Part shown: positions 9,442 to 17,032 of the stretch, one piece after another
Layout of the letters: each line of letters opens with the position of its first letter
Position numbering within the stretch: position 1 is the first letter of the stretch
Source of the DNA: Cyclobacteriaceae bacterium
GTDB lineage: Bacteria > Bacteroidota > Bacteroidia > Cytophagales > Cyclobacteriaceae
NCBI GenBank assembly: GCA_046541235.1
Contig: JBKHDR010000011.1
Span: 518-64,517 of the forward strand
Direction of reading: 5' to 3'
Length of the DNA stretch: 64,000 nucleotides
Position numbers and translations under genes: made by a program
Notes under the pieces: generated by a model
Databases searched by the model: none
What the model was told of the DNA's origin: nothing
What the model saw: only the letters and a program-made list of their open reading frames with translations

Positions 9442-10155
9442 TCAGATGCGGTCACGTATCGGCAGGTTGACAAAGAAATTGGTACCCTGTCCTTCTTCAC
9501 TTTCATACCAGATACTTCCCTGGTGTCTTTCGACAATCTTTTTAGCCAGATAGAGGCCCAGGCCGCTGGATTCCTCGCCTTCGGTACCCCGGCGGGTAGC
9601 TTTGCTGAACTTGCTGAATATGTAAGGCCTGAGTCTTTTTGGGATACCAATGCCCTGATCCGATACAGAAATATTGATCACATTGGCATACTTAACTAGT
9701 TTCACAATCACCTCGGTGCCCGGAATTGAATACTTGACGGCGTTGGAAAGCAGTTGCTCAATCACCCGGCGGATGGCTACTTCGTCCATGTAGATGGTAG
9801 CTTCTTCTTCCAGGTCCTCAAAAATCACCTTTACGTCCTTAGACTTGCTGAGGCTGGCAGGATACCTTTCAGCAACTTGCTTCACAATGCGGTTGATGAT
9901 GACCGGGCGAGGCTGCTGCAGGGGATCTTCTTCAAGACAGCGATCTACCGAGATAAGGTTATGAATGATGCTCTTGATAGTGGTACAATCGCGTTCTATG
10001 GTTTCAAAGAATTTACGATTCTCATCATCTATCTCATTCTCAAAGTTCTTGAAAAGTGTATAATTGCAGGATCTTATCCTGGCGAGCATACCTTTCAGAT
10101 CATGCCCTATACGGGCAAGGATCTCTTCATTGGTCTCAGCACTTTTGATCATCAC
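9442..10155 (-). CDS. Minimal histidine kinase (HisKA + HATPase only, no sensor or TM)
   Basis: H-box IGHDLKG at residues ~16-22; N box QLLSNAVKY; DQGIGI; IFSKF; SGLGLY. Confidence 0.85.
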   Translation of the reverse strand: MMIKSAETNEEILARIGHDLKGMLARIRSCNYTLFKNFENEIDDENRKFFETIERDCTTIKSIIHNLISVDRCLEEDPLQQPRPVIINRIVKQVAERYPASLSKSKDVKVIFEDLEEEATIYMDEVAIRRVIEQLLSNAVKYSIPGTEVIVKLVKYANVINISVSDQGIGIPKRLRPYIFSKFSKATRRGTEGEESSGLGLYLAKKIVERHQGSIWYESEEGQGTNFFVNLPIRDRI

Positions 10156-11592: not shown

Positions 11593-12108
11593 GCTTTACT
11601 GTTACGTTTTTGCCAACCTAAGGTGACACTCTTCTATTCAGATTTAATTGTTTCTTAAAAAGGCAGAAACAGGCACATGTCAGATTTTTACTTTTTTTCA
11701 AATAACAGTCAGTTGCAGGGCCGGCAAAAATATTGTGTATTACTCATCATAATTCAAAACAATTACATACGACAATTTTCTTAAGTAGCCTGAGCAGATT
11801 TTACTAACATTTTCTCACCTTAAGCTTAAGTAAGCTCATTTTTTGAAGACTTTGAAAAAATCAGGGAGTTGAGGAGTAGAGCTGCCTGTATATTTTAGTA
11901 TTTCTGATTTATGTAGTTACTTTTTCTCTATTATATAGCCACCTATAACTAAGTATATCAGACAATGCCATTTTAAGTTCTTGAAGTAAATATTTAAAAT
12001 AGTACCCCTGATACGATTCACATGAACTTCTTACCTGTAGTTTATCCGTATGAAGCGAACAGGTATCTTTGAAGAGCGGTGAATCTTTTTTTTCAAAAAA
12101 AGATATGA

Positions 12109-12498
12109 ATGCTTATGCAAGTGAAGGATTGTCAGAAAGCCAATGAAATTATCAGCTTCCACTTAGAAGATGGAATTCTTCATGGAACTTATCTTGTCCA
12201 GAAAATCAACCTGGGAGCAGCTATCAATGCTACTTCATTCAAAAAAGAAATTACAATGGGTAAACCTTACCCGGCACTGGCTGACATTTCCAGGGTGAAA
12301 GATATGAGTAAGGAAGCCCGGGCTTTTTTTTCTCAGGATGCGGGTGAGGATCTGCTGGCACTGGCCGTCATTGTCAACAATCCGGTCACACGGATGCTGA
12401 CCAACTTCTTTCTTCAATTCAACAAGCCGGTTTACCCTTTTCGCATTTTTACTGACCGGAAAGAGGCCATCTGCTGGTTGAAAAAATACCAACATTAG
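12109..12498 (+). CDS. STAS/SEC14-like (SpoIIAA-like) small protein, copy 1
   Basis: 129 aa alpha/beta pattern; DISRVKDMSKEAR; C-terminal PFRIFTDRKEAICWL typical of SpoIIAA-like proteins. Confidence 0.75.
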   Translation: MLMQVKDCQKANEIISFHLEDGILHGTYLVQKINLGAAINATSFKKEITMGKPYPALADISRVKDMSKEARAFFSQDAGEDLLALAVIVNNPVTRMLTNFFLQFNKPVYPFRIFTDRKEAICWLKKYQH

Positions 12499-12509
12499 TA
12501 CATTCTCAG

Positions 12510-12887
12510 ATGCAGGATAAGATATTAGACAATAAGTATTACAGAGCTGAAATGCAGGATGGCATCATGATCGTGCAATATAAACCCGGCCTGCATATCA
12601 CGCTGAAGGAGGCCAGGGAAATTGTACAGGCGAGGCTTGATCATTTTGGGAACATTTCATATCCGGTAATTTTTAAAAGCTCCAGGGTAAAAAGTATAGA
12701 CAAAGCAGCACGCAGCTACCTCTTCAAGGAAGGGCATATCAACCTCAAAGCTATTGCGCTAATAGAGCAAACCAAGGTAGAAAAAGTGATGTTGAGCATC
12801 ATGCTGAATTTTGACCGCCCTCCCATACCCTGCCGTGCCTTCGACAATGAAATGGATGCCATAGCATGGTTACAAGATTTTAAATAA
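12510..12887 (+). CDS. STAS/SEC14-like (SpoIIAA-like) small protein, copy 2
   Basis: Paralog of the preceding ORF: shares DGI, YP, SRVK, KxAR and PxRxFxxxxxAIxWL. Confidence 0.75.
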   Translation: MQDKILDNKYYRAEMQDGIMIVQYKPGLHITLKEAREIVQARLDHFGNISYPVIFKSSRVKSIDKAARSYLFKEGHINLKAIALIEQTKVEKVMLSIMLNFDRPPIPCRAFDNEMDAIAWLQDFK

Positions 12888-12889
12888 GT

Positions 12890-14113
12890 ATGGACAAAAA
12901 CGAGAAGCGTTTGGAAGATATCAACCAACTGATACTGGAGATCGCCGGAGGAAAACTGGGCCGTAAGCTGGAGATATCTTCTGCTTTTGATGAAATTGAT
13001 GCGATTGCTTCCGGTATCAATATGCTGGGAGAAGAGTTGCAGGCGAGTATGATCGACCGCAACTACTTCAATTGCGTGCTGAAAAGCATCGTGGATATTC
13101 TCATCATTTTTGACCAGAACTATCAGATTATCCAGATTAATGACAAGGCTCTTGAATCCCTGGGCTATCCTGAACAAGACCTGCTAGGTAAATCTATTGG
13201 CTCATTAGTGCCTGACGAAGAAAAAGAAAAATTTTTTAATCTGATTGCTGCTGTCCAGGAACAGGAAGCACTCTATAATGCGGAAGTCAATTTTTGTACT
13301 GCCTTGGATGAAAAACTTCCCCTGGCTATTTCTGTCTCCAAGCTACAGACCAAAAGTCAAATGCAATCGGGGTATGTACTCCTGGCTAAGGATCTGAAAC
13401 AGTTTTACATTCTGTCAGATGCCCTGAAGAAGAAGAATAAGGAGCTTGAGACTTTTGTCTATAAAGTGTCTCATGACCTGAAAGGGCCGGTAGCTTCGCT
13501 GCTCGGCCTGCTGGAGTTAAGTGAAAGAGAGGATAATGACTTGGCAACTATTCGTGCCTATATGGGGATGATGAAGAGCAGCCTGCAGCGGCTTGATAAA
13601 AGCATCGTTTCTTTTCTTAATTTCACTCTGGCTACCCGTACTGATATCGAACCACAGAAAGTCATGCTCAAGCAGGAAGTATACGAAGTGATAAAGGTAC
13701 TATGGGCTTTTCCCAACAGATCCTATGTATCTATCAATAACCTGATCCCCGATGAGTTGAGCCTGTATACAATTCCTGAGCTGCTTCGTTCGGTACTGCA
13801 GAATTTTATTGAAAACGCCATCAAGTACAGAAGCAGGTTCAGGCCTTCCAGTGTGGATATCAGCGCTGAAACACACCCTCAGAAAACCATCATCCGCATC
13901 AGGGACAATGGCATCGGCATGAGCCCATATATTCGTGAACGAGCTTTTGATATGTACTTCAGGGGGCATAGCGAAGCGCCCGGCAGCGGCCTTGGCCTGT
14001 ACATTACCAAAGCCAGCGTAGAGAAGCTGGGAGGAGAGATTTATCTGTGCAGCGAAGAAGGTAAGGGAACCGAAGTAAAAATTACGCTTCCCAATCTCAA
14101 CCGCTATGTATAA
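12890..14113 (+). CDS. Soluble HAMP-PAS-HisKA-HATPase histidine kinase
   Basis: N-terminal HAMP-like IAGGKL...DEIDAIASGINMLGEEL; PAS INDKALESLGYPEQDLLGKSI; H-box VSHDLKGP; NFIENAIKY; DNGIGM; GSGLGL. No TM stretch. Confidence 0.88.
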   Translation: MDKNEKRLEDINQLILEIAGGKLGRKLEISSAFDEIDAIASGINMLGEELQASMIDRNYFNCVLKSIVDILIIFDQNYQIIQINDKALESLGYPEQDLLGKSIGSLVPDEEKEKFFNLIAAVQEQEALYNAEVNFCTALDEKLPLAISVSKLQTKSQMQSGYVLLAKDLKQFYILSDALKKKNKELETFVYKVSHDLKGPVASLLGLLELSEREDNDLATIRAYMGMMKSSLQRLDKSIVSFLNFTLATRTDIEPQKVMLKQEVYEVIKVLWAFPNRSYVSINNLIPDELSLYTIPELLRSVLQNFIENAIKYRSRFRPSSVDISAETHPQKTIIRIRDNGIGMSPYIRERAFDMYFRGHSEAPGSGLGLYITKASVEKLGGEIYLCSEEGKGTEVKITLPNLNRYV

Positions 14114-14162: not shown

Positions 14163-16589
14163 TTAGTACTCCTTTTCCAGTAGTTTATTGCCCTGCAAGC
14201 CTTCCAGCGCTTCAAAACTGAAATTGGCATCGGTCTGTATAAAGCCTACTTTGGGAAACTGCCGGGCACCCAGCTTCTTCTTTTCCATATTGGCCGTCAC
14301 ACCCAGGTGAATCAGTTCTTTCCCCAGTGCATTGGCTCGCATTACTGCCCGGTAAAGCAGTTGCTTGTACACTTTGTGTTCGGCGTATTCATAATCAAGC
14401 CCCACCAGTACTCCCTGATAAGTACGAGGACTGATATGGGTCATGGCTACCCCGATCAGCGGTTTTTCACCGGTAGCCGCATAAAGGCAGATAAACTCCC
14501 ATTCTGATGACTCATTCATCTGGCTAAAAAGCTTATAAGGATAAGCGGTAATATTAAGCGCCAGGTTTACTTTTTGTACGTTCAGGTAAAGCATGTAGGC
14601 CGTGTGCAGTTCTTCATCCGTCAGTTGTGCTTTGTGCTCAATTACAAAGAGATGTTTGCGGTTGAGGACATCCTGGCGCATGTGTTTCCTGGAGCGGGGC
14701 GTGAGCGTAGCCTGAAAAGTTTCTTCATTTTCAAAATGAGTCAGTTCAAGTACTGAAGCTTCGGGGAAATCCACTTTCATAAAACCCTGCTCATGGAAGA
14801 AATCGTTGAGTTCGGTATCATCAGCATGCAGGTCTCGGATGATCATAGTCTTGGCATCCATCTGCTTTTTTAGTTTTTCCATTTGCAGGCACAGCATCCG
14901 CAAAGCTTCTTTATACATGTGATGTGAGCGGTCCACGTAGAGATGATCGCCGTCCGTGATCTGTGAGCCCATACAAAGCACCCTGCTCATCATAAAGTAG
15001 GGGTCTGTCATTCGTATCGCTTCTATAGGCGCAGATACTTCCGGTTTAGCCAGCATGTCATCCTTCCAGAGCCCTGCCGTGAAGAAGGTTGCCAGCACCG
15101 GGTGCTGCTTTTTGTCCCTGATAATGAGATACACAAAATTCCAGTTGTGTTCGGGCAGCAGATTGTCAGCAAATGCGCTTTCCATCAGCCGCAGGTTACT
15201 GTGATTGAAGATACCCTTATCGGCAAAAAGATAATCCCAGTCCTGGGAATTGATATCACTGATGCGATGATAGACTGATACATCAAGCTGTTCCGATACT
15301 TCTGCTGCATCGTGCGGTTCTTCCACCGGAGGCAGTTTAAAGGCCGCTCTCACGCGGTTGAGGGTTAGTCCTTCTTCCCTCAAACTCTCGGGATAATGAT
15401 GAACCATGGCATCAACCAAAGCTTTGATCTCTTCTTTCTGGTTATGCCTTGAAATGGTAAACCTGATGCCGGAATTACGTACAGGTACGGCGGGGAAGAT
15501 GGCTACATTGATATAAAAGCCCTCGTTCATGAGCCTGCGCGCAAAATTGTAAGCAGCGGCTGGCAGGGCTGATCCTATAAAATGGACAGGGCACACGTTT
15601 TCCTGCACCAGGGGCAGGGAAGTCTGCCTGATAAGTTCGTTACAGTAATTCACTTTCTCTCTGAGATCAGCCTGTAGCTCGTAGATTTCGTCAGAAAGGT
15701 GAATCCTGGCTGATGCCAGAGCAGCTGCTACGCTGGCAGGCTCCAGCTGGGCCGAGAAAGTCTGGGGCCCACCAAAGATGCGGTAGGATTCATAGAGCGC
15801 CTGATCACCAAAAACCACCACGCTGCCGCTGGCTCCGAAGCTTTTGCTAAGCGTACCGACCAGCACCATTTGCTCCGGCAACTCACCCAGCTGGCTCATC
15901 ACATAACCTGTACCGTGTTTGCCCGCCCAGCTCATGCCGTGTACATCATCTACATAGAGATGAAGCTGAGGATATTTTTTCTTCAGTTCCAACAGTTCTC
16001 CCATGGGTACTGTATCTCCGTACATAGAATATACTCCATCGGCTGCATACCAGATATGACGGTACTGGTTTCGGTATTTCTTAAGCAAATCCTCCAGCAT
16101 GTTCATATCGTTGTGTCGCAGTAGCTGCACCGGAATGCCGCGAGGCTTGAGCAGCTGCGCTGCATTCTGTACACTGGCGTGCACCTGCTGGTCCAGGATC
16201 AGCATATCTTCATCTCTTACCACAGAAGGGATGACACCTAAGTGGGCCAGGGTACTGTTCTTGGTGATTACCAGCGGGCGCTCGTACATTTGCAGAAGTG
16301 CCTCCTCCAGCTCTTTGTAAATCACAAAGGAAACATAGGTTTTTGACAACGGAAACTGGGTACCATAGCGCATAATAGCATCACAGGCCGCCTGCTTGAT
16401 TCTTATATCCTGCTCGAGACCCAGGTAGCCGGTGGTACCGAAATGAAAAAGCTTCTTGCCTTTGATCTGGATATAGCGACCGTCAAAATGATCCCCTTCG
16501 GTGTAGAGATGAAGCAACCCCTCTTTCTTGGCATGAAGAATCAGGTCGCCGATAGTATCCAACAAATTGTTGTGTCTGGATTTAGCCAT
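14163..16589 (-). CDS. Alpha-oxoamine synthase (BioF/Spt/CqsA-like, PLP) fused to a C-terminal FemAB/GNAT-like domain
   Basis: GYLGL, DQQVHASV, DGVYSMYGD, DDVHG, GTLSKSFG (PLP Lys), FPAVP..GIRFTIS in residues ~1-400. The following ~400 aa include GLDY and HLGVTANMEKKKLGA, typical of tandem GNAT/FemAB folds. Start placed at ATG 16589 (MAKSRHNN). Confidence 0.85.
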   Translation of the reverse strand: MAKSRHNNLLDTIGDLILHAKKEGLLHLYTEGDHFDGRYIQIKGKKLFHFGTTGYLGLEQDIRIKQAACDAIMRYGTQFPLSKTYVSFVIYKELEEALLQMYERPLVITKNSTLAHLGVIPSVVRDEDMLILDQQVHASVQNAAQLLKPRGIPVQLLRHNDMNMLEDLLKKYRNQYRHIWYAADGVYSMYGDTVPMGELLELKKKYPQLHLYVDDVHGMSWAGKHGTGYVMSQLGELPEQMVLVGTLSKSFGASGSVVVFGDQALYESYRIFGGPQTFSAQLEPASVAAALASARIHLSDEIYELQADLREKVNYCNELIRQTSLPLVQENVCPVHFIGSALPAAAYNFARRLMNEGFYINVAIFPAVPVRNSGIRFTISRHNQKEEIKALVDAMVHHYPESLREEGLTLNRVRAAFKLPPVEEPHDAAEVSEQLDVSVYHRISDINSQDWDYLFADKGIFNHSNLRLMESAFADNLLPEHNWNFVYLIIRDKKQHPVLATFFTAGLWKDDMLAKPEVSAPIEAIRMTDPYFMMSRVLCMGSQITDGDHLYVDRSHHMYKEALRMLCLQMEKLKKQMDAKTMIIRDLHADDTELNDFFHEQGFMKVDFPEASVLELTHFENEETFQATLTPRSRKHMRQDVLNRKHLFVIEHKAQLTDEELHTAYMLYLNVQKVNLALNITAYPYKLFSQMNESSEWEFICLYAATGEKPLIGVAMTHISPRTYQGVLVGLDYEYAEHKVYKQLLYRAVMRANALGKELIHLGVTANMEKKKLGARQFPKVGFIQTDANFSFEALEGLQGNKLLEKEY

Positions 16590-17032
16590 TAACTTAATGC
16601 ATTGATTTTGAGAATATAAAATTGAGGAACAAATGCCACACCTCTGAACTGAAATAAGGATAAAGCGGATCTTGTAAGAAAAAACCAGGAATAAGTGTGA
16701 ATTACAAAGCAAAAATACAGGAAATAAGAGATACCACTGATACTGACTAAAAAATCAATTTTATGTTTACCAAATACGTCCGTCATACTACCGACTGAAG
16801 GGGCAACGGCATGTAAGGTCTTCCTGATTTGAGAATAAAAAAGTTAAAAAAGCTCTTTTTTTCTGTTTTATTTCATGAAGCATTATCTGATGTATCTACA
16901 TTTATTTACGTAATTTCAGCATCGCCTTGATCAAGCTTGATACTTTTTTTCCTCATTTTCAGTAAATTGGCAAAGGCAACATTATACAGGAAAAAGCATA
17001 TTTATACTTTCGGACGATGAACCTTATTTTTT

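Follow-up and report, generated by a model that had tools for sequence, protein, structure and literature searches.

STAS-like DUF7793 proteins encoded with a soluble, HAMP-first histidine kinase in Cyclobacteriaceae: putative detached subunits of a split sensor kinase

In the usual description, a HAMP domain is a relay actuated by the membrane helices that precede it. Fungal group III kinases are nevertheless soluble proteins with HAMP domains at the N-terminus. In Aer2, too, the HAMP domains (a poly-HAMP region) stand at the N-terminus of a soluble protein and are not preceded by a membrane helix (PMC3570549, PMC13446029). Here we analyze a locus within a 64,000-nucleotide stretch of DNA from a Cyclobacteriaceae bacterium (contig JBKHDR010000011.1; the whole stretch is called the window below), where a histidine kinase that starts directly with a HAMP-like segment is encoded just behind two small DUF7793 proteins with a STAS-like fold. 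While Aer2 carries its sensor, a haem PAS domain, downstream in the same chain and has no known detached partner, the window kinase exhibits a single HAMP domain and its putative STAS-like partner is detached. An earlier note on this DNA had proposed that the locus encodes a split sensor kinase, the input being supplied in trans by the small proteins.

Kinases depending on accessory proteins have been described before. In CpxA-CpxP and QseE-QseG, referred to as "three-component" systems, the kinase has a modulator in the form of a separate small protein encoded alongside it (PMC4160245, PMC12691602). Other accessory-protein-dependent kinases are WalK (with YycH/YycI), LiaS (with LiaF) and GraS (with GraX). 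These accessory proteins mostly sit in the periplasm or the membrane and act on domains that are extracytoplasmic or membrane-embedded; a STAS-fold protein is not listed among those named here. In contrast, the window system is predicted to be entirely cytoplasmic, with a STAS-like partner of which the presumed target is the N-terminal HAMP domain. The body of the window kinase itself resembles the cytoplasmic part of WalK/VicK; one of the WalK structures (9a5d) is an integrative model of WalK with YycH.

Small proteins of the STAS fold that control signalling enzymes are known from partner-switching systems (SpoIIAA, RsbV, the RsbS/RsbR stressosome, SiaC-SiaD and SypA), among which SiaC binds a signalling enzyme directly and thereby activates it. 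The window DUF7793 proteins differ from these in having no conserved phospho-serine and no accompanying RsbW-type kinase or PP2C phosphatase, the putative partner being a HisKA kinase. The SpoIIAA-like family DUF3478 (PF11964; PDB entries 2q3l, 2ook and 3bl4) shares its fold and size with DUF7793. It has no known partner or function, whereas DUF7793 is a separate Pfam family found beside or fused to HAMP kinases. The proteins 2q3l and 2ook were reported as dimers that adopt an open and a closed state. Their deep, nonpolar cavity, flanked by alpha2 and alpha3, was likened to the CRAL-TRIO/Sec14 carriers, and they were proposed to bind nonpolar ligands; histidine kinases are not mentioned in that paper (PMC2954212). 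None of the papers found mentions "DUF7793" or "STAS SEC14 domain-containing protein". Accessory-dependent kinases and soluble N-terminal HAMP domains are already known, but the papers found do not describe a membrane-less HAMP domain with a STAS-like protein as its conserved partner, be it detached or fused.

The features of the locus are as follows (positions are those of the window).

12109 to 12498, forward strand: DUF7793 type A, the copy distal to the kinase, 129 amino acids (aa), or 127 aa from the ATG at 12115 (PF25056, E = 2.3e-31).
12510 to 12887, forward strand: DUF7793 type B, the kinase-proximal copy, 125 aa, STAS/SpoIIAA-like fold (PF25056, E = 1.1e-32; PF11964, 25.8 bits).
12890 to 14113, forward strand: soluble histidine kinase, 407 aa, with HAMP, PAS, HisKA (the dimerization and histidine phosphotransfer domain, DHp) and HATPase_c (from profiles, model and structure matches).
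12896 to 13045, forward strand: divergent N-terminal HAMP domain of the kinase, residues 3-52, with the helix 2 motif I-N-M-L-G-E-E-L (from model and homologue alignment).
13079 to 13396, forward strand: PAS domain of the kinase, residues 64-169 (PAS_9, E = 7e-9, also PAS and PAS_4; model).
13445 to 14095, forward strand: kinase core, HisKA with the phospho-accepting His195 (13472-13474), then HATPase_c (Pfam).
12064 to 12071, forward strand: candidate Bacteroidota-type -7 element TAnnTTTG, a consensus match only, 38 nucleotides 5' of the first open reading frame (ORF).

The gaps within the locus are 11 nucleotides between the two small ORFs and 2 nucleotides between the second one and the kinase, while the gap 5' of the first ORF is 516 nucleotides long and AT-rich (G+C fraction 0.32). 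This upstream gap exhibits one match to TAnnTTTG, the element listed above, and a scan inside 12109-14113 gave no match. A generic scan for sigma-70 promoters and terminators revealed no signal exceeding shuffled expectation. Given the two short gaps and one promoter-like element upstream with none inside, the arrangement fits a single transcript, in line with the one operon that the earlier note had read from the gaps. A TAA codon is present in the kinase frame three codons 5' of the kinase ATG; therefore the kinase has no N-terminal extension and the predicted protein starts at the HAMP segment. A frameshift or read-through fusion of the type B gene with the kinase is ruled out by the different frames and by this in-frame TAA, and in every two-copy locus the type B gene and the kinase are encoded separately. 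The first small ORF could start at either of two ATG codons, at 12109 or, two codons on, at 12115; a public gene call takes the second (127 aa).

We examined the linkage of the kinase and DUF7793 genes in 80 loci from species-representative genomes, fetched as best hits by alignment with the kinase. A locus was classified as HAMP-first when the match reached residue 8 or earlier (28 loci); the other 52 match the PAS-kinase part or the kinase core only. One or two DUF7793 ORFs are found nearby on the same strand in 25 of the 28 HAMP-first loci, against none of the 52 loci of HAMP-less relatives. The finding that the earlier note had named as fatal to its proposal, homologous kinases commonly lacking STAS neighbours, is thus not what the HAMP-first kinases exhibit. 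Among the exceptions, L041 has only 257 nucleotides of upstream sequence, L047 encodes an 833-aa protein with an internal HAMP domain, and L027 ends directly past a gene for an alpha-oxoamine synthase fused to a GNAT acetyltransferase (AOS+GNAT; see below), beyond which the DUF7793 pair lies in L033. The association is maintained through at least five gene orders: A-B-kinase, A-kinase with a gap of 110-200 nucleotides, kinase-A, kinase-AOS-A-A, and A divergent from an AOS-kinase pair. The adjacency persists at 32-61% kinase sequence identity.

The co-occurrence statistics that had been suggested as a check point in the same direction. In an even sample of 151 genomes of the same order, DUF7793 was found in 34 and the HAMP-first kinase in 12, both being present in 11; in 9 of the 12 kinase genomes the two genes are within 3.5 kb of each other. 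Fisher's exact test for the co-occurrence gives p = 2e-7, a value that is overstated since related genomes are not independent. One kinase match (genome G019) was a false positive, a PAS-only sequence without HAMP, and was removed from the count. The genome that contains the window has 60 kinase-core ORFs, and just one of them, the DUF7793-adjacent kinase, carries this HAMP type or the motif N-[MLI]-L-[GS]-E-E-L.

Natural fusions connect the same parts within one chain. Among 1.84 billion representative proteins, a profile search returned 7,109 DUF7793 hits at E<=0.001, and domain architectures were obtained for the best 150. These comprise 132 single-domain proteins of about 125 aa, eleven tandem polypeptides with 2-4 DUF7793 domains and no other recognized domain (eight of 252-288 aa and three longer ones, P0121, P0123 and P0124), six kinases with 2-3 N-terminal DUF7793 domains, and one protein with two DUF7793 domains and a receiver domain (P0236). 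All six kinase fusions carry a segment matching the profile of residues 5-58 of the window-kinase family. This HAMP segment begins 12-32 residues past the last DUF7793 domain in P0150, P0203, P0215 and P0231, while P0129 and P0139 exhibit 5-6 predicted membrane-spanning segments between DUF7793 and the HAMP segment. In BLASTP comparisons, residues 4-60 of the window kinase align to the fusion HAMP segments, including the sequence I-N-x-L-G-E-E-L. The domain order of P0231 (DUF7793, DUF7793, HAMP, PAS, kinase) is that of the three window genes joined together. Word-based homologue searches retrieved no protein but P0231 itself when started from this fusion, and 3 proteins when started from the type A protein. 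The N-terminal position of DUF7793 in the kinase fusions is the usual place of input domains. Another locus, L110, encodes a canonical membrane-proximal HAMP domain followed by a second segment of the special type. Because the HAMP segments of the fusions and of L110 match this type, DUF7793 tracks a special HAMP subtype and not HAMP domains in general. To judge from these architectures, with two or three DUF7793 domains, the same HAMP type, a kinase and in some cases PAS in one chain, the idea of a split sensor kinase gains support.

The kinase exhibits Pfam matches to PAS_9 (residues 72-169), HisKA (186-245, E = 7.6e-7) and HATPase_c (296-402, E = 8.3e-24), and a prediction of hydrophobic segments found none. 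The best-conserved part of the family is the N-terminal 55 residues (33 homologues), with the pattern I-A-x-G-N-F, a connector of 14-15 residues, and D-E-I-D-A-I-x-x-G-I-N-M-L-G-E-E-L. The columns G21, D34, D37, G42, N44-L46 and E48-L50 are invariant. The family thus displays HAMP hallmarks, a glycine after helix 1 and an acidic start of helix 2, in its A-x-G-N/D-F/L and D-E-I-D motifs. The Pfam HAMP model recognizes 22 of the 33 family members at E<=0.01 (best 1.4e-5), and the NCBIfam WalK, VicK and PnpS models align from kinase residue 3-8 across their own HAMP regions. An AlphaFold2 model of the kinase monomer places a helix at residues 3-19, a loop at 20-34 and a second helix at 35-52, followed by PAS, DHp and catalytic domains. 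The predicted local distance difference test score (pLDDT) is 65-68 in the HAMP region, and PAS strands and helices extend across residues 70-168. The top Foldseek matches of this model are WalK (9a5d) and VicK (4i5s), with 412 aligned columns. In view of the WalK/VicK/PnpS alignments, the homologue hits, the conserved hallmarks, the helix-loop-helix model and the structure matches, we consider the prediction of residues 3-52 as a divergent HAMP domain sound despite a sub-threshold Pfam score.

The catalytic part appears regular. The positions H195-D196, N309, D339-N-G-x-G343, F353 and G365-S-G-L-G-L370 are invariant in the 33 homologues, and by its H, N, G1, F and G2 boxes the protein is a predicted HisKA-type (class I) histidine kinase. 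It scores below the cut-offs of the NCBIfam equivalog models for PnpS (147.7 against 400), WalK (128.3 against 725), VicK (77.5 against 680) and PhoR (111.4 against 334). Profiles, model and the upstream stop codon thus concur with the architecture first read from the translation: a start at HAMP, then PAS, HisKA and HATPase, with no transmembrane segment.

The two small proteins both match Pfam PF25056 (DUF7793) far above the gathering cut-off of 26, with 108.6 bits for the first (profile positions 1-113) and 112.9 bits for the second (3-113), and both also match PF11964 (SpoIIAA-like) weakly; no NCBIfam model matches either of them. They are 32% identical with each other over 75 residues (E = 6e-15), as expected for the diverged paralogs they had been taken for. 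Their sequence relatives include an uncharacterized Arthrobacter protein, 3bl4 (E = 2.6e-16). The AlphaFold2 model of type B, built with 34 homologues, has a pLDDT of 84.6 and a beta-alpha-repeat topology of alternating strands with four helices (32-46, 65-74, 89-102 and 114-124). Foldseek matches this model with probability 1.00 to 2q3l, 4hyl, 4xs5, 8ih8 and SLC26 STAS domains (template modelling scores 0.53-0.63), the best match being 2q3l, a DUF3478 SpoIIAA-like protein. The anti-sigma factor antagonists 4hyl, 4xs5, 8ih8, RsbS and RsbV are among the matches, as is RsfB, and SiaC (6kko, 7e6g) is a weak one. CRAL-TRIO is found neither in the Pfam matches of the small proteins nor in the top 50 Foldseek hits of the type B model. 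Of the "STAS/SEC14-like" description in the earlier note, the STAS part therefore holds at the level of the predicted fold, while the "SEC14-like" label is fair only at the level of the common SpoIIAA-like fold.

The most conserved DUF7793 segments are alpha2 (K-x-A-R, with an invariant arginine) and, in type A, also alpha3 (N-P-V-T-R...N-F-F); alpha3 is the part of lowest pLDDT in the type B model. The N-cap residue of alpha2, which is the phosphorylation position in SpoIIAA, is S, T, D or P in type A copies and always Asp in type B. The DUF7793 alignment thus does not exhibit the conserved phosphorylatable Ser/Thr at alpha2 that is expected of an anti-sigma factor antagonist. Neither an RsbW/SpoIIAB-type serine kinase nor a PP2C phosphatase was found in the window locus or in the 28 related loci. 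On both grounds, the lack of a conserved phospho-serine and the absence of RsbW and PP2C neighbours, classical partner switching was rejected for the window locus.

In a maximum-likelihood tree, 34 DUF7793 proteins fall into two clades (support 100/99). The B clade (11 members) contains the kinase-proximal copies, including 12510-12887, and a third copy from the same genome. The A clade contains the distal copies, including 12109-12498, as well as every single-copy locus and the downstream copies. The branching within the two clades is parallel; the duplication is therefore old, with both copies retained in Catalimonadaceae and neighbouring lineages. The type A profile outscores the type B profile for 126 of the 132 single-domain representatives; type A is the generic form and type B is lineage-restricted. 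The divergence between A and B is greatest in alpha3. Since tandem polypeptides are common and 2q3l and 2ook were reported as dimeric (PMC2954212), a paired DUF7793 unit is plausible, and it may take the form of an A:B heterodimer; the parallel branching of the two old clades lends the pairing indirect support as well.

The third copy just mentioned, type B-like and 137 aa long, is located on contig C10 (L003 1492-1905, minus strand). The block to which it belongs (L003 899-1905) places it directly upstream of a 183-aa ORF homologous to a 164-aa ORF found 3' of the kinase in 14 related loci (30% identity, E = 2e-26). It appears that an ancestral block has come apart in this genome and now occupies two places. 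The 164-aa ORF has no Pfam, NCBIfam or PDB match besides a faint TsaC-like hit (E = 0.044).

The operon, the HAMP-specific linkage that survives rearrangement, the N-terminal fusions, the phyletic pattern, the recurrent pairs and the fold, comparative evidence throughout, lead us to favour, as rather probable, the reading that DUF7793 A and B are detached subunits which bind the N-terminal HAMP bundle of the kinase or a site adjoining it, where they would set its output. According to this scheme the kinase would be a dimer in the cytoplasm, of the architecture HAMP-PAS-HisKA-HATPase and with no domain preceding HAMP, and A and B would be made from the kinase transcript in matched amounts. We infer that they dock on or beside the HAMP bundle, probably as an A:B pair per kinase protomer or dimer. 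Once docked, they would bias the HAMP domain between its signalling states and thereby shift the balance of kinase and phosphatase activities, the output passing to an unlinked response regulator. By analogy with 2q3l and 2ook, the most likely signal would be a small ligand, hydrophobic or anionic, lodged between alpha2 and alpha3; alternatively, it might be a protein partner bound between these two conserved helices.

Several observations weigh against this reading. The Pfam HAMP model (PF00672) aligns to residues 6-52 of the window kinase with 14.7 bits, below the cut-off of 25. A kinase with the special HAMP adjoins 12 of the 60 DUF7793 loci sampled from the same order, another or a truncated kinase adjoins 3 more, and most of the sampled loci adjoin unrelated genes, such as those for UvrA, MutS and peptidases. 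Because only about 15 of the 60 loci adjoin a kinase, DUF7793 is a general small module, one clade of which is specialized with the HAMP-first kinase. The kinases of genomes G020 and G135 are unlinked to any DUF7793 gene, and a di-HAMP variant of the kinase (L146 4249-5760, forward strand; 503 aa, two tandem special HAMP segments) occurs in a genome that gave no DUF7793 match at E<=1e-5. The third copy on contig C10 has no kinase nearby. Every repeat in the 18 multi-domain DUF7793 proteins scores higher with the type A profile, and for this reason the fusions were rejected as literal joins of A and B. Finally, the fusion of two DUF7793 domains to a receiver (P0236) and the receiver genes in four related loci would also fit a role in output or phospho-relay. 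These single-domain receiver genes lie directly 3' of the DUF7793 gene or the kinase gene (L028 6727-7119, L029, L030 and L035), and their products are candidate cognate partners; there is no receiver gene among the ORFs examined around the window locus.

A further gene, which the earlier note did not mention, recurs in this neighbourhood.

14163 to 16712, reverse strand: fusion of an alpha-oxoamine synthase (a pyridoxal phosphate enzyme) with an Acetyltransf_6/GNAT domain (Aminotran_1_2 and Acetyltransf_6 matches), convergent with the kinase.

As listed, this AOS+GNAT gene encodes 849 aa. Because the homologues align only from residue 34-40 on, translation probably begins not at the listed TTG but at an internal Met some 40 codons further on. 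The best NCBIfam match is PRK07505, a "hypothetical protein" model (276.7 against a cut-off of 342), and the match to the CqsA-type autoinducer synthase model PRK07179 is weak (66.2 bits against 428). Its relatives are BioF, Kbl, serine palmitoyltransferase and cysteate-C-fatty-acyltransferase, and CqsA only distantly. The gene is present in 20 of the 28 related kinase loci, mostly divergent from the DUF7793 genes, and in L085 and L086 it is flanked by the kinase gene and a divergent DUF7793 gene. It adjoins DUF7793 in 14 of the 60 sampled loci, four of which (L089, L090, L094 and L108) have no kinase within 3.5 kb. DUF7793 is present in 14 of the 15 genomes with a full-length enzyme, and the enzyme occurs in 10 of the 12 genomes with the kinase. 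The recurrence of this three-way association suggests a functional link, in which the product of the enzyme may be the signal or the enzyme a regulated target.

In CqsA-CqsS and LqsA-LqsS, systems of alpha-hydroxyketone signalling, an enzyme of the alpha-oxoamine synthase family is encoded next to a sensor kinase. The window enzyme differs from CqsA in being closer to BioF/Spt/PRK07505 and in its extra GNAT domain, and the window kinase differs from CqsS in being soluble, with no CqsS-type membrane helices. By analogy with these systems one may envisage, tentatively and with more doubt than confidence, a cytoplasmic lipid-signal circuit of Bacteroidota in which AOS+GNAT would make an amino-ketone-type lipid, possibly N-acylated, DUF7793 would capture it in a Sec14-like cavity, and the loaded DUF7793 would switch the kinase. 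A and B would then provide two specificities or an asymmetric pair. If true, HAMP would here have a detachable sensor in the form of a soluble lipid carrier, which would amount to a new receptor principle.

The same data may be read in other ways. DUF7793 could act downstream of the kinase as a STAS-type switch, its state being set by phosphorylation or by a receiver protein. STAS proteins are classically phospho-switched, the structural matches include RsbV, RsfB and SiaC, and many type A copies, the window's among them, have Ser/Thr at the alpha2 N-cap; the P0236 fusion and the receivers of L028-L030 and L035 would find a natural place in such a scheme. In addition, a distant DUF7793 subfamily is encoded convergently with a large Reg_prop/Y_Y_Y sensor bearing a SpoIIE-type PP2C domain (1161-aa ORFs; L120 78-3476, L129 and L133), and some DUF7793 proteins may thus be phospho-regulated like classical STAS proteins. 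However, the N-cap residue is not conserved and is Asp in type B, the window locus and its 28 relatives are devoid of RsbW-type kinases and PP2C, the His box of the kinase is that of a normal HisKA, and in all six kinase fusions DUF7793 is N-terminal, before HAMP, which is an input position. An output role of DUF7793 at this locus therefore seems unlikely to us.

We judge about equally improbable that the DUF7793 proteins are Sec14-like carriers for the hydrophobic substrate or product of AOS+GNAT, making no contact with HAMP, with the kinase as a co-regulated or regulating neighbour. The four kinase-less loci in which the enzyme adjoins DUF7793, the near-constant presence of DUF7793 in genomes with the full-length enzyme, and the CRAL-TRIO-like nonpolar cavity of the SpoIIAA-like relatives (PMC2954212) would all suit such carriers. 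But among the top 150 representatives the partners fused to DUF7793 include kinases and in no case the enzyme, and L007, L008, L025, L028-L030 and the fusion locus L145 combine DUF7793 with a kinase with no enzyme within 5 kb. Moreover, the enzyme gene is never in the DUF7793 transcription unit, being always divergent or convergent. It is also conceivable that co-transcription reflects inherited synteny with no common function, since many of the loci come from related Cytophagales, whose shared ancestry inflates the counts, and since most DUF7793 genes have unrelated neighbours. The maintenance of adjacency through at least five gene orders and down to 32% kinase identity, the independent fusions, and the specificity for the HAMP-first kinase among 60 kinase-core ORFs make such a passive association highly improbable.

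Two additional observations were made in the course of this analysis. A minimal histidine kinase of 237 aa is encoded 2 kb upstream of the operon (9442-10155, reverse strand); it exhibits a weak HisKA match and HATPase_c only, has no sensor domain, and is not kept in the related loci. The Cytophagales genome G020 has 18 DUF7793 matches, including several tandem pairs, a lineage-specific expansion.

A HAMP domain with nothing before it and a detachable STAS-like partner would provide a simple soluble system for studying how HAMP is switched from outside the chain. The association described here would also give the first functional context for DUF7793, with its 7,109 hits, and for its relatives from structural genomics, 3bl4, 2q3l and 2ook, which to our knowledge have remained without function since 2007. 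Finally, the conserved AOS+GNAT neighbour suggests that two-component signalling in Cytophagales is linked to the product of this enzyme, presumably a lipid or an amino-ketone.

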